Position numbers and translations under genes: made by a program. Shown here piece after piece: positions 9,484 through 52,469 of a DNA stretch of 64,000 nucleotides (positions are counted from its first letter, which is position 1; every line of letters begins with the position of its first letter). Under the pieces are notes generated by a model. The model saw only the letters and a program-made list of their open reading frames with translations. It was not told the DNA's origin and searched no databases. Source of the stretch: Candidatus Poribacteria bacterium (GTDB taxonomy: Bacteria > Poribacteria > WGA-4E > WGA-3G); NCBI GenBank assembly GCA_965214095.1, contig OZ243938.1, positions 2,880,001-2,944,000 on the forward strand. The letters are read 5' to 3'.

Positions 9484-9586
9484 TATAGTGAATTATAAAT
9501 ATAAGTTGACACTTTCGTCCCACGGTAGGCGAGGTTTCCTAACCTCGCCGATGCAGAGTGTTCAAGTAATTTCAAAATCTACTATA
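9484..9586 (+). mobile_element. Family E 103-bp MITE (TATAGT...ACTATA) carrying REP GTAGGCGAGGTTTCCTAACCTCGCC
   Basis: Same length and nearly the same sequence at 23162-23264 and 52367-52469 (inverted); diverged copy at 39356-39458. Confidence 0.85.
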
Positions 9587-14117: not shown

Positions 14118-17100
14118 TTATTTCTGTGGTATTGCCTTATTGATTGTTAAATCATCAAAAGGTTGTCCGTTTTTGTCCGTAATGCGGAGGATAAAAGCAC
14201 ATGCGCCTTCAACATTACACACCTTCACGAGGATACTGTTCTTACCTTGTTTGAGTGTGACAGGAATGATATATGTATCAAGTCTAACAGCAAAGGTTTT
14301 AGTATGTGTGAATTCCTCTTTGCCGTTTAGCCATAATTTTCCTTGGTCGTCACTATCAAACCTTAGTTGGACTTCACGTTCATCAGGTGAGATAACGGTA
14401 GCGAAGGTGTAGAAGACTTGCCAATCAACATTCTTTTCACCGAGATGGATATAACCGTTTAACCCTGTATCGTTGAACTTTTTCCAACTGACTGGTCCAT
14501 TCTGTCCATCATATTTTGTAGTGAGGTCAATTTCCGTGATGTCTTCGGGTATGTATACAGTATCAAAGCCGGTCCCGCCTGCGTTGTCAAACGGACCAAG
14601 TTCCATCCATGCATCTTCTGTTATGAAACCAGTTTTTTGAATATGCTCATCTGCCTGTTCATGCAGACCATATTCACGATAATATTCGGCTAAACCGAAA
14701 TGTGTACCAATCCAAAGTCTCAGGCTATTGGGTTGATTTGGGTCAAGTTCAGCAATCATATTATCAATTTTTTGGATATACATATCTGCCTTTTCATTTA
14801 TGCCGTTATCCCGATAATATGTAATTAGACTGAGGTAGGCATTTAACTGAAGACTTAGACTTTCTGTCGTAAGGTTTCTCATTAGGATATCTATTTTCTC
14901 AATATGCTCATCTGCTTTCTCATCCATTCCATTATCGTGATAGAATTTAGCGAGAACAAGGTGTGCATTCAATTGGATGCTCCGACTATCTGCAAATGCG
15001 TCAATCAATTTATTTACCATGTCAGCGAAACCTTCTTTACCTTCAATATCTTTACCGATTTTGCCAATTCTTGCGAATAAATGACGGTGAAAACTTGGTG
15101 GTGTAATGACATTCTGTCCTCTCTGATAATCTGCAGCGGATAAGTATTTCACAAATTCCCCATACGCGTGTTCATACCATTCATTAGCGAGATATATCTC
15201 ACCGTTCCACAGGACATGATCAGAGATTTTTGGCTTTTGTGCTGAATGTTCAAGGATTTGTAACACATTTTCAGGTGATTGTTCTTCAGTGGCAGGGTTC
15301 ACATTAGGTTTAAGTTCTTGATTCTCTGCGTATGCATTCCTGATTACTTGATCCCAATCCCACAGTAGAATATTACCGCCTCCAACACTGAGAAGCGTCT
15401 TATGATCTGGTAAAAATATCAAATCTCCCACAGCCACGGAATGTCCATCAAGTGTGATAAGTTTATCTCCGGTCGCTACATCCCACAACCGAATTTTCCC
15501 ACCCCAGTAACCGACAATAAGTACTTTATTATCTGGTGAAAAGATAAATGTATCTCCATCTTCTTCTTCAGAAAAAAGCAATTCCTTAAAGTGAGGTTGT
15601 TTCGCTCTTCCTATGATACGTATCCGTTTCGTACTGCGGACAGCAATTAACGAACTGTCTGAAGAAAATACAAACTGATGTATAGGTTCTCGTTTTTTAT
15701 CGTTATCTGTCAATTCTGGAAAGAAAGAACTTAACTCCGTTCCAGTTTCCGTATCCCACAGTTGTACATGTCCACCTGATGTACCACTGACAATCCTCTC
15801 CCCATCTGGTGAAAATTCTACAGTTCTGATAAAAGGTTTGTCTTCATCGGAATCTTCATCAATGTCTGAGGTAATTATTTCACGTTTTTCACCGGTTTCT
15901 ATATTCAACAAGTAGATTTTATTGACAGCACCTTGTGCTAAGATTTTTCCATCAGGCGAAAACACCTCTCCAACACCCCATGGGAAAGACTTTAGTTCAC
16001 GTCCTGTGTTAACATCATTCAGACGTAGTACCCAATCATTAAAGTGTGGCTTAGTCGGGTCGGTTTGTTTACCGTGATTGAGCAGTTTGGTTCCATCTGG
16101 TGTGAACACATACGTTCTGTAAGTATTCCAATACAAATGTCCCTCAAGTACTGCTTTGATTATAGAAGTTGTTTTTTGAGTATTCTTCAGATCCCAAACA
16201 GTGATTATACCTTTGTTTGATACACTCACAAAACTTGTTCCATCATTTAATGCAGCTGTCGATCTTATCCACATGTGTCCAGTAATTTTGTTCTGTACTG
16301 GTCTTCTTGTCTCAATATCCCAAAATCGGACTGTACCATCGGCACTCCCGCTTGCGAGTGTTTTGCCATCTGGTGAAAAAGTTAATTGTTCAACAATGCT
16401 GAGATGACCTGTGAAGGTAGCAATAAATTCCCCTGTAAGACTGTTCCACAATTTGATAGTACTATCTTCACTACCACAAGCAAGCAGTGAACCGTCTGGA
16501 GAGAATGCCAATGAAGACGGTCTACTGTTCCTCTCGTTCTTCATAGGGTTTCCTACGATCTCTTTTCCATTTTCCGTTGATACACTCCACATGTTCCCTT
16601 CTATAGGCTTTTGTAGAACAATTAACTCTGCTCCTGTGGTTGTATCCCATATTTGTACTGTAGTATCCAGATTTCCAGTAGCGAGTTTTGTTCTGTCTGA
16701 AGAGAATTCCATAGTCAGTGCTTTGTTTGTCTTAGTGAAATAATTAGGCAAACTAACTTCTTTCCCAAATTTCCTAAACGTTGTTAACTTCTTACCTGTC
16801 GTAGTGTCCCACAACTCAATTTTTCCATCATTACTTCCGATAGCGATTCTATCTTCTGTAAGTGCGTAACTTTCAAGGTGCATGTATCCAGGTCTTTTTC
16901 CCAGATTTGTCGTTATCGTCTCTCCAGTTTCTACATCAATCCAATATATGTTTTCTCTTGACATGCTGAGACATACAAGCGTTTTGCTATCATTTGTGAA
17001 CCGCAACGTTTTCGCAGGAGGCAACTCATCTTGTAACGCTACTTTTCTCCCTGTAGTAACTTCCCGTATTTCAATTCCTGTTTCAAGCGGACTCCCACCA

Positions 17101-17639
17101 AAACTGGTGACTGGGTCTCCACCAGCAGATGCCATAAAGCGACCATCAGGTGAATACGCAATTGCTCTACTCATTCCGAGTAATAATGAAATCTCTTCAC
17201 CTGTTGCCACATCGTAAATCCAGACACCGGTATTACTACCCACTACCATTTGTCTGCCATCTGGTGAAAACTGAATTGTTCCCAGTCCTCCCTTTCCCAG
17301 ACGCATTTTCGCTCCTTTTGGCAGATTCCATTGTGGATAATTCTCCATTTTATTTTCTTCATCTGCGTCTACAGATGGTGGTTGTGTATTATCAGGTTGT
17401 TTTTTAGTAACAGGATTTTCTTGTTGCGCGAAAGCATTTCCTTGGAATAGTGCAAAATTATTGCCTTTTCCAAAACCTAACATCATTAACACTACCACGC
17501 AGGAAACGGTAGCGGTTAACCATGGGACAAATGGATTACTTGTAGATGGGGCAACAGGTTTTGTTTGTGAAATCTCACACATGATTTTGTCAGTAAGATT
17601 TGGTGTGATTTTGAATTTTGCTAATGCTTTTCTTATCAT
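14118..17639 (-). CDS. Membrane-anchored WD40 repeat protein with helical region and C-terminal 'LGPFDN' beta-sandwich-like domain; probably 5'-truncated
   Basis: TM segment near residues 37-57, LPKGAKMRLGKG cap and WD40 repeats; the C-terminal domain is homologous to those of 40527-49724 and 49977-52102. Confidence 0.85.
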   Translation of the reverse strand: MIRKALAKFKITPNLTDKIMCEISQTKPVAPSTSNPFVPWLTATVSCVVVLMMLGFGKGNNFALFQGNAFAQQENPVTKKQPDNTQPPSVDADEENKMENYPQWNLPKGAKMRLGKGGLGTIQFSPDGRQMVVGSNTGVWIYDVATGEEISLLLGMSRAIAYSPDGRFMASAGGDPVTSFGGSPLETGIEIREVTTGRKVALQDELPPAKTLRFTNDSKTLVCLSMSRENIYWIDVETGETITTNLGKRPGYMHLESYALTEDRIAIGSNDGKIELWDTTTGKKLTTFRKFGKEVSLPNYFTKTNKALTMEFSSDRTKLATGNLDTTVQIWDTTTGAELIVLQKPIEGNMWSVSTENGKEIVGNPMKNERNSRPSSLAFSPDGSLLACGSEDSTIKLWNSLTGEFIATFTGHLSIVEQLTFSPDGKTLASGSADGTVRFWDIETRRPVQNKITGHMWIRSTAALNDGTSFVSVSNKGIITVWDLKNTQKTTSIIKAVLEGHLYWNTYRTYVFTPDGTKLLNHGKQTDPTKPHFNDWVLRLNDVNTGRELKSFPWGVGEVFSPDGKILAQGAVNKIYLLNIETGEKREIITSDIDEDSDEDKPFIRTVEFSPDGERIVSGTSGGHVQLWDTETGTELSSFFPELTDNDKKREPIHQFVFSSDSSLIAVRSTKRIRIIGRAKQPHFKELLFSEEEDGDTFIFSPDNKVLIVGYWGGKIRLWDVATGDKLITLDGHSVAVGDLIFLPDHKTLLSVGGGNILLWDWDQVIRNAYAENQELKPNVNPATEEQSPENVLQILEHSAQKPKISDHVLWNGEIYLANEWYEHAYGEFVKYLSAADYQRGQNVITPPSFHRHLFARIGKIGKDIEGKEGFADMVNKLIDAFADSRSIQLNAHLVLAKFYHDNGMDEKADEHIEKIDILMRNLTTESLSLQLNAYLSLITYYRDNGINEKADMYIQKIDNMIAELDPNQPNSLRLWIGTHFGLAEYYREYGLHEQADEHIQKTGFITEDAWMELGPFDNAGGTGFDTVYIPEDITEIDLTTKYDGQNGPVSWKKFNDTGLNGYIHLGEKNVDWQVFYTFATVISPDEREVQLRFDSDDQGKLWLNGKEEFTHTKTFAVRLDTYIIPVTLKQGKNSILVKVCNVEGACAFILRITDKNGQPFDDLTINKAIPQK

Positions 17640-18172: not shown

Positions 18173-18436
18173 TTACTCGAAATAGTCAGCGTTGATTTCA
18201 ATGAAATGCTCCCATTCCTCTGGAACATCTTCTTCCATGAAGATAGCCTCAACGGGACATTCCGGTTCACACACGCCACAATCGATGCATTCTTCGGGAT
18301 CAATATAGAGCATTTCAACTTCTTCAAAGTCGTCAGGTGCATCTGTTGGATGTGGGTGAATGCAATCTACTGGACACACATCAACACAAGAACTGTCTTT
18401 TTCGTCAATGCAAGGTTCGCAAATTACATAGGTCAT
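18173..18436 (-). CDS. 7Fe-type ([3Fe-4S]+[4Fe-4S]) ferredoxin, copy 3
   Basis: C-X7-C-X3-CP and CxxCxxCxxxCP motifs; FdxA-like MTYVI...YIDPEECIDCGVCEPECPVEAIF; RBS AGGAG. Confidence 0.93.
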   Translation of the reverse strand: MTYVICEPCIDEKDSSCVDVCPVDCIHPHPTDAPDDFEEVEMLYIDPEECIDCGVCEPECPVEAIFMEEDVPEEWEHFIEINADYFE

Positions 18437-18478: not shown

Positions 18479-18757
18479 TTAAACACTGGGTTGTTGTTCG
18501 TAATAATCAGCGTTTATTTTTATGTAATGCTCCCATTTTTCGGGAACATCCTCATCAAGAAATATAGCCTCCACAGGACATTCCAGTTCACACACGCCAC
18601 ATTCAATACATGTATCCGGGTCAATAAAGAGTTGGTTTACACCTTCAAAATCGTCTGCTTCATACTCAGGGATTGGTCTTATGGATTCACAGGGGCAGAC
18701 ATCTACACAAGAAGCGTCTTTTTCGTCAATACAAGGTTCACAAATTACATAAGTCAC
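18479..18757 (-). CDS. 7Fe-type ferredoxin, copy 2
   Basis: Same motifs; CPCESI replaces CPVDCI; GTG start with AGGAG RBS. Confidence 0.92.
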   Translation of the reverse strand: MTYVICEPCIDEKDASCVDVCPCESIRPIPEYEADDFEGVNQLFIDPDTCIECGVCELECPVEAIFLDEDVPEKWEHYIKINADYYEQQPSV

Positions 18758-18809
18758 TGTGTGCTCTCCTATTATTATATACTATTTTCCTAATTTGTCA
18801 AATAAATGT

Positions 18810-19076
18810 TTATTCTTGAAAGTAATCAGCGTTTATTTCTATGAAATGTTCCCACTCTTCTGGCACTTCATCATCTACAAAAATTGCTTCAACAGGACAT
18901 TCTGGAACACAAGCATGGCAGTCAATGCATTCTTCTGGGTCAATGTAAAGTTGTTCTACTTCTTCAAATTTGTCTGGGTCTCCATCTTTCATTGGGTGAA
19001 TGCACTCAACTGGACACACCTCAGCACAAATATGGTCTTTTACGTCAATACATGGTTCGCAAATTACATAAGTCAT
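18810..19076 (-). CDS. 7Fe-type ferredoxin, copy 1
   Basis: Same motifs (CIDCHACVPECP); RBS AGGAG. Confidence 0.93.
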   Translation of the reverse strand: MTYVICEPCIDVKDHICAEVCPVECIHPMKDGDPDKFEEVEQLYIDPEECIDCHACVPECPVEAIFVDDEVPEEWEHFIEINADYFQE

Positions 19077-19169: not shown

Positions 19170-19913
19170 TCAAATCAGTGGTAGAGCAGTATTCACTTGA
19201 GCAGAATGCCAATGTAATTTCTTGTTCTCAACGTCATTAGAGTAAGTATAACCACCTTGAACAAAACGGATACCTACCATTATCTCTAACCGCATAGCAA
19301 TTTCCTTCACCTCGGCGATATCTATTTCCACGTCTTTATCTTTCTCAACAAAAAAACCATTATGGAGTAAGCGGACTTGTAACCCATGTTCTTTCAGTGA
19401 AGTTGCCAGACGATTTGCTAATGTTTCTACATCAGAATACTGAAGTTCAGCACCGTCTTTCTGATTATATAAACTAAATCCGTTATGACGCACTTCAACG
19501 TGTAAACCTTCTTTTTCTACCAGCAATTCCAGTTGGGTCATATCCTCATCACGATAGATGATTCCCTCATTTGCCAAAACTTGCAATTCATACTCACGAT
19601 CAACTACTTTCAAGGGAAGTGTCCGTTCTGCGATTAAGGATGTGAGTATTTCCTTTATTTCTGGTGCACGATGTGTTTCTAATGCAAGACAAGTTATCGC
19701 ATCTTCCATATTGGACGTAGTTCTTCCAACGGAAATAGAATGACTCTTTCCACAACCGTTCATCCATTGCTTTATTATTTTGTCCATACCTTCTTGTGTT
19801 TCTTGAAAAGCATTGTCACTAACCAATTGTGGACCACTATTATAAGCAACGATTGATAGTCCAAGTTCATTGATTAGATTGTCTATTACTTTTTTGACAT
19901 CATTTGGATTCAT
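19170..19913 (-). CDS. Hypothetical protein, 'MNPNDVK' paralog 4 (247 aa)
   Basis: RBS GAGGA; aligns end-to-end with 20870-21613; HNGF motifs and IAEVKE.A.RL...GI C-terminal segment. Confidence 0.85.
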   Translation of the reverse strand: MNPNDVKKVIDNLINELGLSIVAYNSGPQLVSDNAFQETQEGMDKIIKQWMNGCGKSHSISVGRTTSNMEDAITCLALETHRAPEIKEILTSLIAERTLPLKVVDREYELQVLANEGIIYRDEDMTQLELLVEKEGLHVEVRHNGFSLYNQKDGAELQYSDVETLANRLATSLKEHGLQVRLLHNGFFVEKDKDVEIDIAEVKEIAMRLEIMVGIRFVQGGYTYSNDVENKKLHWHSAQVNTALPLI

Positions 19914-19945
19914 GGTTCGTCCTCTTGCTGCAAAGTTTGTTTCGT

Positions 19946-20782
19946 TTAATAAGGGCGCGAAGTAAAGAGAGTTACAGTATTCCAGTTTATTTCAGATGTC
20001 CATTCGGGTTTTACATCCTTTTCAGGCCCCATACCATAACCACTTGCGGAGTATGCAATACCTGTCATTAACATTAAACGGGATGCCAATTCCTTTACCT
20101 CCGCGATATCTACTTCATCTTCTTGGTTCTTCTCTAAATTGAAACCATTCTGAATTAATCTCACTTGCGTTCCGGACTTTTCTATTACCGAATGCAAACG
20201 ATCTACTATTTTCTGAACCTTTGAGAATTGGATGTCAGGAGAACCATTCTCTGTTCGCGTTAAATCAAAACCACCATGGTAAACTGGAACGTTTATGTCT
20301 TCTTTTTTAAGTAAGGTTTCTAATTCAATCATTTCCTCATCACGGTAGTTCTTTACATCAGCAAGAATAAACACATGAAACCCACGATAGAATATTTCAA
20401 GTGGTAAATCTCGTTCTGCAATTAAGGTTTTCAAGATCTCCCTCACTTCTGAAATTCGTTGTGTGTCTGAAGCGAAGTATTCTATTTCTTCACAAATCTC
20501 AGATATAGTTTTTCCTATAGAGATATGGTGGTTTCTATGGTTTTTGTATAAACCGAAAAATTCCCTAGTCTTAGCAAACCATTCTTGCACTGCTTGAGGA
20601 ATTTCGTCGTTTTCATCTCTATCCAGATCCATCCACAGTTGAAGTATATTCTCCAGCCGTTCTCTTGAAACTACCGATTCGTCTTTGCTCACCAATAAAG
20701 GACCGCAATTGAACAGTGTAACGGGTAAGGCAAAATCGCTAATTGAAGATTTCAGTAATTTCTTAACATCATTTGGATTCAT
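19946..20782 (-). CDS. Hypothetical protein, 'MNPNDVK' paralog 3 (278 aa, with an insertion of about 30 aa)
   Basis: RBS GAGGA; shared motifs LIAERDLPL, YRDEEM, YHGGF and IAEVKELA.RL. Confidence 0.85.
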   Translation of the reverse strand: MNPNDVKKLLKSSISDFALPVTLFNCGPLLVSKDESVVSRERLENILQLWMDLDRDENDEIPQAVQEWFAKTREFFGLYKNHRNHHISIGKTISEICEEIEYFASDTQRISEVREILKTLIAERDLPLEIFYRGFHVFILADVKNYRDEEMIELETLLKKEDINVPVYHGGFDLTRTENGSPDIQFSKVQKIVDRLHSVIEKSGTQVRLIQNGFNLEKNQEDEVDIAEVKELASRLMLMTGIAYSASGYGMGPEKDVKPEWTSEINWNTVTLFTSRPY

Positions 20783-20839
20783 GGTTTATCCTCTTTTGAT
20801 AGATTGTTGTTCTTAAGCTTTGAGTCGTTCAGATCAACA

Positions 20840-20868
20840 TGAATGTGAATTCCGTACCTGAGTTGACA
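20840..20868 (-). promoter_or_regulatory. Weaker candidate ECF promoter (GTCAAC-N16-CATTCA)
   Basis: Same AAC-N16-CATTC geometry as the two strong copies; intergenic, upstream of paralog 3. Confidence 0.4.
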
Positions 20869-20869
20869 A

Positions 20870-21613
20870 CTATGGCAAAGCAGTATTTATATCTGCATGT
20901 GTCCAGTGGATTTTTGTATCCAAGCCTGGCACTTTGTACCCGTAGTCTCCTTGGATATATCGGATACCTACCATAACACCTAATCGATATGTGAGTTCCT
21001 TCACTTCTGCAATCTCTATTGCGTCTTCTTGACTTTTGATCAGTTTAAAACCATCATGGAGTAAATATACATGTAGTCCGTGTCTTACCAAAAGAGACGC
21101 GAGATGATTTGCCAATGTATTGACTGCCGACAACATTACCTCAGGTCTATCTTCCTTCTGGCGTAAACTAAAGCCGCTATGACGTACTGGAATATCTAAA
21201 CCTTCCTCCTCCAAATATGTTTCCAGTGTTATCATATTTTCACTCCGATAGTCTATCCCTTCATCAGTTAGAATTTCTAATCGAAAACCTCTATCAACAA
21301 CAGTCAAAGGCAGTGCTTGCTCAGCAATTAGAGATTTCAATATATCCCATACCTCTGTTGTGCGATGTGTGTCTAAAGCAAGACACTTTGTTGCATCATC
21401 TCTCTTTTGCATAGGCAGTCCTACAGAAATGACCCAACTACAGTTATGTTTATTAGACCAGAAATTTAACAGATTCTTTACTCGTGATCGAGTTGAATAA
21501 CTTCCTGGACCGAAAATCAAAACAGGTCCATTGTGAGAAACAGACACATGGATAGGTAGATTGAGTTCAGCGATTAGAGTGTTTACAATTTCATAAACCT
21601 TGTTTGGATTCAC
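20870..21613 (-). CDS. Hypothetical protein, 'MNPNDVK' paralog 2 (247 aa)
   Basis: GTG start with AGGAG RBS; CLALDTHR, RHSGF, LHDGF and IAEVKEL motifs. Confidence 0.85.
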   Translation of the reverse strand: MNPNKVYEIVNTLIAELNLPIHVSVSHNGPVLIFGPGSYSTRSRVKNLLNFWSNKHNCSWVISVGLPMQKRDDATKCLALDTHRTTEVWDILKSLIAEQALPLTVVDRGFRLEILTDEGIDYRSENMITLETYLEEEGLDIPVRHSGFSLRQKEDRPEVMLSAVNTLANHLASLLVRHGLHVYLLHDGFKLIKSQEDAIEIAEVKELTYRLGVMVGIRYIQGDYGYKVPGLDTKIHWTHADINTALP

Positions 21614-21671
21614 AATTCTGTCTCCTTTCTTTCAATCAGCATTGTTGTCAAATTTAGTGATACAGATCAAT

Positions 21672-22382
21672 TCAACGTCTGGGGAACCGCCATAATGAAA
21701 TACGGATATTTGCACCTGTACACTTTGTAGTTTTGAATGTATCCTCAGAGGTAGGTGTATTGTATGAATCCAGGACATAATTGATACCCGTGGCATCATC
21801 AATCCGTTTCGCAATTTTTCTCACTTCTGAGATAGGTATATTGGCTTCGGTAGATTTCTCTAATCTAAATCCACGATGAAACAATTTTACCTTGATGTTT
21901 TTCTCATTTAATTTTGTCTCAAAGTAATTCGTTACTTTTTTAAGTGCTTCAAGTAGTCCCTCAGTGTCCTGTTTTTTCTCTAATCTAAATCCACCGTGTA
22001 GAATTTTAACTGGATAACGCGTTGTGTCATTCTTATCCAATGAAACTAATCGAAAACCTTGATTAGTATTGCAGATAGGTAATTTCTGTTCTGCTATGAT
22101 GGATTCAATAAGTGCTTCTACCTTAAATGAATCCAACAATTCAATCGTAACTGCGTCAGGATCGGTTTTGGAATAGAATTCCATGATATCTTCTCTACCC
22201 GGATGACGCGTGTAAAACTTTCCGTCTTTGTTCCATTGATGGATTACATCTTTGATGCGACCTTCTGTCGTATTATCAGATGTAGAGGGATTTTGAGATG
22301 GAACTATATCAATTAATTCCATCGGAATCCCTTCCTGAACAATTAAGGTCTTTAGCAATTCCTTGACATCATTCGGTGTCAT
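21672..22382 (-). CDS. Hypothetical protein, divergent 'MTPNDVK' paralog 1 (236 aa)
   Basis: RBS AGGAG; IIAEQKLP, HGGFRLEK/HRGFRLEK and ISEVRKIA.RI...TGI.Y. Confidence 0.8.
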   Translation of the reverse strand: MTPNDVKELLKTLIVQEGIPMELIDIVPSQNPSTSDNTTEGRIKDVIHQWNKDGKFYTRHPGREDIMEFYSKTDPDAVTIELLDSFKVEALIESIIAEQKLPICNTNQGFRLVSLDKNDTTRYPVKILHGGFRLEKKQDTEGLLEALKKVTNYFETKLNEKNIKVKLFHRGFRLEKSTEANIPISEVRKIAKRIDDATGINYVLDSYNTPTSEDTFKTTKCTGANIRISLWRFPRR

Positions 22383-22400
22383 GTGCGTGCTCCTTTTAGA

Positions 22401-22432
22401 GTAAGAATGTAATTCGATTGAAAAGGTTACAT
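22401..22432 (-). promoter_or_regulatory. Candidate ECF sigma promoter upstream of the paralog array
   Basis: Minus strand ATGTAACCTTT...TACATTCTTAC (TGTAAC-N16-CATTCT); same motif and spacing as 23309-23340. Confidence 0.7.
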
Positions 22433-22439
22433 CATAATC

Positions 22440-23054
22440 TCATTTTGTTTTCTGCGTTGCCTCTTTCCTAAAAATATTATCAAAATCACCGGGATATTCT
22501 TCCTTCATCCAAGCGACAACTTTTTTCTTGGCACGATGCAAGCGAACTTTCGTTGCCGACACTGTTATTTCCAGCTTTTTTGCTATTTCTTCCAAAGTCA
22601 TTTTGGGATTGGCGAGTTTCAATTCAAACACATCCTGTTCGGAAATTGGTAGTCGTTGTGACAGGGCATAGACAATCTCCATCTGTTCTTTTGCGATGAG
22701 GCGATAGATTGGTGAACGATGCTCAAGGTCTACCAAATATGCTTCTGGATTTCCTTCAATTGAACCGATTTCAAGTTTTCTCTGCTCTTTACGGAAGTGT
22801 GCTGCAATGAGTTGATGCGCGATGCTATACAACCAACTGGAAAAACTTTTGGGATTCCGAAGTGTGCTGAGATTCTGATGCACCTTAATAAATGTCTCTT
22901 GTACAAGGTCTTGCGCGGTTTCCCAATTGCCAACCCGTCTATAGAAGAAACTGAGAAGTGGACCTTCGTAACGGTGATAAAGGATTTCAAATGCTCCATC
23001 ATCATCAACGTCTAAATTTTGATGTACCAATTCTTCATCGTGGTAATCTTCCAT
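22440..23054 (-). CDS. ECF-type sigma-70 factor
   Basis: Region 2 (AFEILYHRY...AQDLVQETFIKV...FSSWLYSIA) and region 4 HTH (TLEEIAKKLEITVSATKVRLHRAKK); 204 aa with no long extension. Confidence 0.93.
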   Translation of the reverse strand: MEDYHDEELVHQNLDVDDDGAFEILYHRYEGPLLSFFYRRVGNWETAQDLVQETFIKVHQNLSTLRNPKSFSSWLYSIAHQLIAAHFRKEQRKLEIGSIEGNPEAYLVDLEHRSPIYRLIAKEQMEIVYALSQRLPISEQDVFELKLANPKMTLEEIAKKLEITVSATKVRLHRAKKKVVAWMKEEYPGDFDNIFRKEATQKTK

Positions 23055-23161
23055 AACATCACACCTATTGGGCTGTTAATCTAAAAATCGGGAATCGGAG
23101 TTCCCACCTGCAATACACAAGAGTCTGTAGGAGCGATCTCCGAATCGCAACCTACTACTGT

Positions 23162-23264
23162 TGTAGTGAATTATAAATATAAGTTGACACTTTCGCCCCA
23201 CGGTAGGCGAGGTTTCCTAACCTCGCCGATGCAGAGTGTTCAAGTAATTTCAAAATCTACTATA
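23162..23264 (+). mobile_element. Family E 103-bp MITE in the putative 5' leader of the ECF sigma gene
   Basis: Two differences from 9484-9586. Confidence 0.85.
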
Positions 23265-23308
23265 ATGAGACACATGCTTATTGTAAAGTTAGCAAAATGA
23301 TTTTATAT

Positions 23309-23340
23309 GTAAGAATGTATATCGGATAGAAAGGTTACAT
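23309..23340 (-). promoter_or_regulatory. Candidate autoregulatory ECF sigma promoter
   Basis: Minus strand ATGTAACCTTTCTATCCGATATACATTCTTAC. Confidence 0.7.
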
Positions 23341-24592: not shown

Positions 24593-25519
24593 TTACCGCA
24601 TCTTACCATCCTTAAACCGTGCAATAGCCCCGCGTTCAGCAAGTTCTGCTTTCGCATAATGTGCCGGCATCTGAGACGACTTCCACCGACCCGCCACCTG
24701 CATATCAACAACAGTCGCACCCGCAGAAGCAAGCGACATCGCAGAACCCACACGTAACGAATGCCCAGAAATAAACCCTTCAACGCCTGCATTTAATGCC
24801 CGTTTTTGAATGATACGTCGCGCAGAATGATCGTGCAACCTATTTTGCTGAATATGTCCACCACGGCGAATCTGCCTGAACAACGCACCGCTCTCAACAC
24901 CGCGCCCCTCAAGATATTTTGCCAGAATGATCCGTGTTCTATCACACACATACAGACTATCGCCGCGCCCCTCTTGGTCAGACTTTGATGTGTGAACTGT
25001 CAACGTCCTATCCCCCAAGTCTTCAACATCCACCGCCACCACCTCACTGATACGCAACAGGCAATCGCTCATCAGACGTATCATCCCAGAGTCTCGCAAG
25101 CCGGCAAGCGTGCCATCGGTTTCAGCCTGAATACAGACGCGTTCCACATCTTGCCAAATCAGACCATCCACCTGTCCGCGTCCCCTTGCTTTACCATCGC
25201 GTCGGATACCCGCCAAAGTTGCGTTTGTGATCGGCATCGCAAAATCCCCACCGACCTCGTGTTTCAACTGCCATTTCACTGCAGCTACCACCTGCGAAAT
25301 CGTTGATGGAGATTTCCCATTTTCGTGCAGTTCAGTCAGATACGCAGCCAGCAAACCATCGGACAACGTCTCACCTGCGGGTTTCCAATTTTCAATCGCT
25401 TGCAGTGCACGTTGATATGCCTTCTTCGTATTATCCGCAATACTGGAATGTATCAGATTTTTGATTTTCGGTCGTATTTCATCGATGGATGATTGTCGTT
25501 TCTCAAGAGCTGTTTCCAT
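24593..25519 (-). CDS. Tyrosine recombinase, Cre-like subgroup
   Basis: N-terminal core-binding domain (NTKKAY...SPSTISQVVAAV); catalytic LRISE, SKSDQ, GHSLRVG, AGRW (Trp as in Cre) and HYA. Confidence 0.92.
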   Translation of the reverse strand: METALEKRQSSIDEIRPKIKNLIHSSIADNTKKAYQRALQAIENWKPAGETLSDGLLAAYLTELHENGKSPSTISQVVAAVKWQLKHEVGGDFAMPITNATLAGIRRDGKARGRGQVDGLIWQDVERVCIQAETDGTLAGLRDSGMIRLMSDCLLRISEVVAVDVEDLGDRTLTVHTSKSDQEGRGDSLYVCDRTRIILAKYLEGRGVESGALFRQIRRGGHIQQNRLHDHSARRIIQKRALNAGVEGFISGHSLRVGSAMSLASAGATVVDMQVAGRWKSSQMPAHYAKAELAERGAIARFKDGKMR

Positions 25520-52366: not shown

Positions 52367-52469
52367 TATAGTAGATTTTGAAATTACTTGAACACTCAGC
52401 ATCGGCGAGGTTAGGAAACCTCGCCTACCGTGGGTCGCGGATGTCAACTTATATTTATAATTCACTATA
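52367..52469 (-). mobile_element. Family E 103-bp MITE (inverted)
   Basis: The reverse complement aligns with 9484-9586. Confidence 0.85.

Follow-up and report, generated by a model that had tools for sequence, protein, structure and literature searches.

Extracytoplasmic function (ECF) sigma factors usually autoregulate, which lets their promoters be predicted from conservation upstream of their genes (PMC7826278). The promoters of the Bacillus subtilis-type sigma factors, sigma-W, -X, -M and -V, have the form tGAAACnTTTt, a spacer of 16 nucleotides (nt), and CGTA, CGTC or CGAC (PMC5758882). The ECF16 group, which comprises Caulobacter SigF, Bradyrhizobium EcfF and Brucella BcrS, has the promoter tGTAACc-N16-CGAA; EcfF and BcrS are autoregulated, and the ECF16 regulons are small, with oxidative or metal stress as their themes (PMC3420878, PMC3511200, PMC8315932). 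For the ECF231 group, mostly from Bacteroidetes, a -35 element TGTAACCTT and a -10 element GTTTCCAC have been predicted (PMC7826278, supplement). Here, we analysed a stretch of 64,000 nt from a Candidatus Poribacteria genome (hereafter the window; C1:2880001-2944000 of a 5.25-Mb genome with 41% G+C), in which an ECF sigma factor gene lies between two promoter-like sites, P1 and P2.

The two sites exist and are unique in the genome. They are bipartite and conserved, always point in the sense direction, and co-occur with the sigma factor. We consider it very probable, at roughly 0.83, that the ECF sigma factor whose gene lies between P1 and P2 reads both of them as its promoters. This reading is favoured by their uniqueness, conservation footprint, fixed position, distribution, co-occurrence with the sigma gene and ECF-like form.

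Two promoter-like sites around an ECF sigma factor gene

The locus is a run of genes on the minus strand, composed of the ECF sigma factor gene, four paralogs named par1 to par4, and three FdxA-like ferredoxin genes. The features that matter most are given below, with scores from a weight matrix of 42 columns, built from 38 distinct related sites.

23309..23340, minus strand: P1, upstream ECF-type promoter-like site, ATGTAACCTTTCTATCCGATATACATTCTTAC; matrix score 50.9 bits; counterparts in relatives.
22440..23054, minus strand: ECF (group 4) sigma factor gene, 204 amino acids; identified by Pfam, NCBIfam and a structure profile.
22401..22432, minus strand: P2, internal ECF-type promoter-like site, ATGTAACCTTTTCAATCGAATTACATTCTTAC; matrix score 55.8 bits; counterparts in relatives.
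21672..22382, minus strand: par1, 236 amino acids, first gene after P2; no locus with a full-length sigma gene lacks it there.

With 204 amino acids and only the sigma-2 and sigma-4 domains (Pfam Sigma70_r2, E 2.4e-18, residues 25-92; Sigma70_r4_2, E 4.7e-08, residues 127-178), the protein belongs to the ECF sigma factors. It scores 84.5 bits against the NCBIfam ECF superfamily model TIGR02937, for which the cut-off is 42.9, and it falls under the cut-off of every narrower NCBIfam model, equivalogs included. Its profile could be aligned over residues 3-181 to the solved structures of SigW and sigma-E, SigW being the top solved-structure match (E 8.6e-14).

The original prediction had singled out two 32-mers on the minus strand, at 23340-23309 and 22432-22401, with conserved ends, a diverged middle and identical spacing, and the sequence bears this out: positions 1-11 and 23-32 are the same in both, and 26 of the 32 positions agree. 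In P1, the segment TGTAACCTTT (23339-23330) holds the -35 element and a T-tract, while CATTCTTAC (23317-23309) holds the -10 element and the stretch towards the start site. The halves of the sites are neither palindromic nor repeats of each other. The end of CATTC in P1 is 258 nt from the ATG of the sigma gene (23054). P2 begins 8 nt past the sigma stop codon, nothing terminator-like separates the two, and from the end of the CATTC in P2 to the ATG of par1 there are 22 nt.

A genome scan for TGTAAC-N16-CATTC had been proposed as a way to define the regulon. The bare motif cannot serve this purpose, because it occurs at the rate of chance: base composition predicts 3.6 matches and the genome has four, of which the two found elsewhere than at the locus have neither the T-tract nor the TTA. 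The extended core, TGTAACCTTT-N12-CATTCTTAC, is found twice in the genome against 1e-4 expected. Over 10.49 million genome positions, the next-best matrix score after those of P2 and P1 was 14.3 bits, and a core matrix limited to the two conserved blocks gave the two sites scores of 38.2 and 37.2, with 11.8 for the next best. As the other scores are so far below, the full-motif regulon in this genome consists of P1 and P2 only; the weight-matrix scan found nothing further, and the 500 nt upstream of this genome's redoxin and Mrp homologs contain no site.

With the B. subtilis-type systems the locus shares an AAC-containing -35 element, the T-tract, the distance to the -10 element and a sigma operon that is autoregulated, which is here inferred (PMC5758882). 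The CATT lies at the geometric place of CGT, as had been proposed, and fits the ECF spacing (PMC5758882). The locus differs from those systems in its -35 element (GTAAC instead of GAAAC), in its -10 region, which reads CATTCTTA at all sites instead of the CGT type, in that no membrane anti-sigma gene was recognised after the sigma gene, and in its second, internal promoter-like site just after the sigma stop codon. ECF16 shares the -35 sequence TGTAACC and has almost the same spacing, but its -10 element is CGAA, against CATT here. Moreover, ECF16 sigma factors pair with a six-helix DUF1109 anti-sigma factor (NrsF/OsrA), whereas the neighbours here have no DUF1109 match in Pfam, and the ECF16 members that have been studied are alphaproteobacterial. 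The predicted -35 string of ECF231, including its CTT, is identical to the one found here, but the -10 element differs from CATT (PMC7826278). In ECF231, a one-helix zinc-finger/HEAT anti-sigma factor is encoded at position +1, with adhesins nearby, whereas the +1 gene here is par1, which encodes a soluble orphan protein without such domains. We found no description of the motif in the literature on Poribacteria sigma factors or on ECF sigma factors with TGTAAC.

Conservation of the sites and their link to the sigma gene

An ortholog of the sigma factor is present in 23 of 24 genomes drawn from the same genus, with 77-94% identity. In the 12.6-kb regions of 20 relatives and this genome, 21 loci in total, the upstream site always precedes the sigma operon. 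When searched for exact matches to TGTAAC-N16-CATTC, each locus yields just two, both in the sense orientation, and no antisense one; only G008 has a third sense site, which precedes a second copy of par1. The distance from CATTC to the par1 ATG is 21-23 nt in 22/22 sites. The upstream site is 56 to about 2,900 nt from the sigma gene; long intervals are occupied by one or two genes for proteins of about 435 amino acids with TPR repeats and a thioredoxin-fold domain of the Redoxin/AhpC-TSA type (Pfam E 1e-24 to 1e-26). P1 is also found in all six loci with a full-length sigma gene from genera g9 (five) and g18 (one), where the order is P1, an optional redoxin gene, sigma, P2, par1, a par paralog and the ferredoxins. 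On sequence alone, a candidate promoter with an AAC-containing -35 element thus lies upstream of the gene of the sigma factor itself, as in autoregulated ECFs.

The exact search pattern makes positions 1-6 and 23-27 invariant by construction, and no genus locus dropped out under it (21 loci). At positions that the pattern leaves free, the pairwise identity of the upstream sites is about 1.00 for 7-10 (the CTTT that follows TGTAAC) and for 28-30 (TTA), while its mean is 0.62 in the spacer and 0.31 in the flanks. Nineteen bases are invariant across the three genera, and the extended core is kept in more than 60 genomes, over which sigma identity falls to about 61%.

A strict 14-base pattern, TGTAACCT-N14-CATTCT, expected 0.06 times per genome, was then counted more widely. 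At the genus level it is present in 39/40 genomes (reversed control 0/40), 36 of which have a same-strand pair on one contig, as counted from the listed matches; at the order level, it is present in 64/151 (reversed control 1/151). By genus, the figures are 36/37 in g1 and 27/60 in the sister genus g9, with 0/6 in g10-g12 and 0/47 in three other families (0/53 together). Of 112 genomes of the family, 70 contain the sigma ortholog at E <= 1e-45. In g9, where 60 genomes were scored for both features, motif and sigma occur together in 26 and are both missing from 33; no genome has sigma without the motif, and one has the motif alone. This one, G130, has a decayed locus with a redoxin fragment, a sigma fragment of 92 residues, no P2 and no par1. 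In g1, G042 (73% complete) has neither motif nor sigma. A profile search finds the par family in 71 of the 112 genomes, namely the 70 with sigma and, as a fragment, G130, and always at the locus. Motif, sigma and par family are gained and lost as one block.

In G018 (L061, G018:C43), a 951-nt insertion separates sigma from par1, and P2 has stayed beside par1 with one mismatch. The insertion is flanked by repeated GC-rich hairpin-like units, and its open reading frame resembles, by eye, an IS200-type transposase.

Sixteen further pattern matches in the genus were examined, 15 of them outside open reading frames of at least 80 amino acids; 15 of the 16 are in sigma-bearing genomes, the exception being G004. 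The genes that follow the recurrent ones among these extra sites encode an 810-amino-acid double-redoxin protein (G018, G055), a 435-amino-acid redoxin protein (G004), an Mrp/NUBPL iron-sulphur (Fe-S) P-loop NTPase (Pfam PF10609, E 1e-104; G018, G043, G023), a protein of 118-123 amino acids without family (G015, G043), and a WD40 protein (G008, G054). The matches in G010 and G011, and one string common to G012, G049 and G053, resemble chance. In g9, a WD40-repeat gene follows four of the five third sites examined. In the relatives, the cargo includes redoxin-domain proteins, the Mrp/NUBPL Fe-S carrier and ferredoxins, along with WD40 proteins. It hints, loosely, at a response to redox or Fe-S stress, a theme into which the WD40 targets do not fit simply.

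Assembled contigs from RNA libraries of relatives (four runs of one study, which could include DNA) cover the sigma, par1 and ferredoxin genes, as a matter of presence only. One contig bridges sigma to par1 and another bridges a par gene to fdx1-3, the three ferredoxin genes. Two par1 contigs end 5-6 nt upstream of CATTC; as the spacer there varies between strains and assemblies tend to break in it, these ends do not tell for or against a start site. The genes par2-par4 are in none of these contigs, which is not evidence that they are silent.

The proposed circuit and other explanations

If the sigma factor reads both sites, its domain 4 would bind TGTAAC(C), the -35 element ahead of the -35-proximal T-tract, and its domain 2 would bind CATT(CTTA), which takes the place of CGT in other ECF promoters, N16 after the AAC hexamer. 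Transcription would start within or just after the conserved TTAC. From P1, the sigma factor would activate its own gene in a positive feedback, and in many relatives P1 would also drive the one or two TPR-redoxin genes ahead of sigma. P2 would give par1 and the par paralogs, and probably the first ferredoxin gene, a sigma-dependent start of their own; the leader of par1 would then be about 15 nt long and contain AAGGAG. Transcripts from P1 would probably read through into the genes driven by P2. The original prediction had the sigma factor driving itself, the paralogs and the ferredoxin array. The sense orientation, the fixed spacing and the conservation of the sites with sigma in three genera argue for the first two parts, while the third is uncertain for fdx2 and fdx3, which have a TTGACA/TATAAT-like site of their own in 21/21 genomes.

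Several observations weigh against the sigma factor as the reader of P1 and P2. The -10 element is without the usual CGT, and CATTC and ATTCT have no occurrence in the available part of the ECF classification supplement (PMC7826278). No match to zf-HC2, RskA, DUF1109 or another anti-sigma family was found with Pfam and NCBIfam among the proteins neighbouring sigma. The RNA contigs are silent on starts, ends and strand, and some span the -10 box or the whole of P1. G004, of genus g1, has one site, before its redoxin gene, and no sigma ortholog at E <= 1e-45. Since the block is inherited whole, co-occurrence cannot fully separate sites read by this sigma factor from sites that belong to the same module; and as related genomes are not independent, the counts speak for a tight module and should not be taken as so many separate trials. 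In this genome, finally, the leader of the sigma gene holds a hairpin-forming repeat and a terminator-like hairpin, which could weaken the feedback. As to the first of these points, a -10 element of the CGT type is common among ECFs and not universal.

It is improbable, in our judgement, that P1 and P2 are real promoters read by another sigma factor, with the local one as a target and not the reader. There is no shortage of candidates, as 45 ECF-like matches were counted in this genome (G000), and overlapping promoter recognition is documented for the B. subtilis ECFs (PMC5758882); the lone site of G004 could be explained in the same way. Against this, the motif was not found in the genomes without this sigma factor (33 of g9, six of g10-g12 and 47 of other families), which have many other ECFs, and the sites outside the locus are all in sigma-bearing genomes save that of G004. 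Furthermore, the conservation of a site immediately ahead of an ECF gene is the accepted signature of autoregulation (PMC7826278).

We give very little credence to the idea that the element is no promoter and acts as an operator, or as a site for recombination or cassette exchange in a variable par array. The par family does vary, from one to nine matches per genome, this genome has a tyrosine recombinase gene upstream, and 19 invariant bases exceed what many ECF promoters conserve. But the halves of the element are neither palindromic nor direct repeats, and they fit the -35 and T-tract form and the spacing of ECF promoters (PMC5758882). The sites are always in the sense direction and keep a fixed distance of 21-23 nt ahead of the par1 ATG and ribosome-binding site; in 103 internal gaps, a site occurs only before the second par1 copy of G008 and none between the variable paralogs; and the recombinase is in 0/20 of the relatives' regions. 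That the likeness of the two 32-mers is due to chance, or is a functionless relic of a local duplication, is hardly believable, for although the bare 11-base motif is as frequent as chance would have it, the extended core is not, and it persists in those more than 60 genomes down to about 61% sigma identity while the flanks drop to 0.31.

The par array, the ferredoxin genes and other neighbouring features

The other par paralogs follow par1 on the same strand, separated by gaps of 32-87 nt (19170..21613), and the ferredoxin genes follow them.

20870-21613, minus strand: par2, diverged par1 paralog.
20840..20867, minus strand: GTCAAC-N16-CATTCA string in the gap from par2 to par3; no support for it as a site.
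19946-20782, minus strand: par3, diverged par1 paralog.
19170-19913, minus strand: par4, diverged par1 paralog.
18810-19076, minus strand: fdx1, ferredoxin gene (Pfam Fer4 families).
18774..18801, minus strand: TTGACA-N16-TATAAT, between fdx1 and fdx2; 12/12 match to the consensus, conserved.
18479-18757, minus strand: fdx2, ferredoxin gene (Pfam Fer4 families).
18173-18436, minus strand: fdx3, ferredoxin gene (Pfam Fer4 families).

The string before par3 had been noted as a weaker third site. It is present, but not above chance: its core-matrix score is negative, and 2,660,467 of 10,490,064 genome positions score at least equally. Sites of this weak type do not recur either, AAC-N16-CAT being found three times against 2.9 in shuffles, over the 103 internal intergenic gaps of the 21 genomes.

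The par proteins match no Pfam family above threshold and no NCBIfam family. The AlphaFold model of par1 (pLDDT 77, pTM 0.77) has mixed helices and strands, and by this model the protein is of the alpha/beta type and not a helical anti-sigma domain. A Foldseek search of the model against the PDB gave no match at E <= 0.001, a wide structure search gave no convincing match (best Z 6.8, generic alpha/beta domains), and the ESM Atlas gave no usable match. Among 1.84 billion proteins, the par family comprises 14 representative clusters at E <= 0.001.

The three ferredoxins match FdxA models, but under the curated cut-off. Ferredoxins come after the par array in 20/20 relatives, G009 having two. 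All 21 genomes have a counterpart of the TTGACA/TATAAT site (TTGACA-N16-18-TATAAT-like, at most one mismatch) immediately ahead of fdx2, and with this conserved site of their own fdx2 and fdx3 may be expressed independently. In this genome, its -10 element ends 16 nt before the GTG start codon of fdx2 and 3 nt before AGGAG. With the -10 element so close to both, a transcript from this site would have almost no leader, and the activity of the site is uncertain. Since the lineage also uses TTGACA/TATAAT, the TGTAAC/CATTC motif is not its housekeeping promoter.

Further features lie around P1.

24593-25519, minus strand: tyrosine recombinase (phage-integrase family) gene directly upstream of P1 (Pfam).
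23055..23308, minus strand: leader between P1 and the sigma start codon, 258 nt from the end of CATTC; holds the repeat and the hairpin listed below.
23259-23287, minus strand: TTTACA-N17-TATAGT, about 20 nt downstream of P1; 10/12 match to the consensus.
23163-23263, on both strands genome-wide: 101-nt repeat resembling a miniature inverted-repeat transposable element (MITE); 96 copies (at least 90 nt, at least 90% identity).
23089-23106, minus strand: terminator-like hairpin and T-run, 35 nt ahead of the start codon of sigma; common to G021, absent from the leaders of other relatives.

The leaders of the relatives are 56-258 nt long and not conserved. The MITE-like repeat folds to a hairpin of -27.7 kcal/mol and has other copies in the window at 9486-9585 and 52368-52467; some of the RNA-library contigs of relatives join position 23162 straight to 23264, without it. 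The terminator-like hairpin may be part of another small inserted element. As neither repeat nor hairpin is conserved, the long distance from P1 to sigma is recent and not a feature of the system. The TTTACA-N17-TATAGT sequence could be a basal housekeeping promoter for sigma, and the leaders of G005, G021, G001, G010 and G019 also contain the string AACTTTACA. The tyrosine recombinase gene has no counterpart in the 12.6-kb regions of the 20 relatives, which makes it an insertion specific to this genome. Between positions 17500 and 24000, Rfam gave no match at E <= 0.1.

Downstream of the ferredoxins, at 14118-17639 on the minus strand, there is a gene for a WD40-repeat protein of 1173 amino acids. 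Several relatives (e.g. L028, L034, L036) have a second ECF-like sigma gene before the WD40 gene, with about 30% identity to the sigma factor described here; none was found in the 533-nt gap before the WD40 gene in this genome. Many ECF-like domains in the genomes of the genus are within open frames of 900-1300 amino acids, which suggests that ECF sigma domains are fused to, or run into, very long C-terminal regions. Contig C2 of this genome (32,066 bases) has 64% G+C against 41% for the main chromosome and may be foreign or mis-binned.

Poribacteria are uncultured sponge symbionts without genetics, so that their regulatory circuits can be read from sequence only, and here a sigma factor, its promoter and its cargo were defined by comparative genomics, which gives a testable pair of sigma factor and promoter. 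The 19 invariant bases suit heterologous reporter tests, and the pair could serve as an orthogonal switch. An ECF -10 element without CGT at the canonical spacing is a small data point on how sigma domain 2 reads DNA. We put forward, as a tentative and rather unlikely proposal, that the locus represents a new ECF group of one Candidatus Poribacteria family, with a non-CGT -10 element (CATTCTTA), no classical anti-sigma factor, and par1 as a soluble regulator of sigma. If so, par1, under its own sigma-dependent promoter, would close a negative feedback loop, and the variable par array, together with the redoxin, ferredoxin and WD40 cargo, would amount to a symbiont-specific redox or host-interface response. 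In its logic the circuit is textbook, with an ECF that autoregulates and a second promoter inside; particular to this case are the lineage-specific non-CGT -10 element and the orphan cargo, a lineage-specific par family linked to redoxin-domain proteins, ferredoxins and WD40 proteins.

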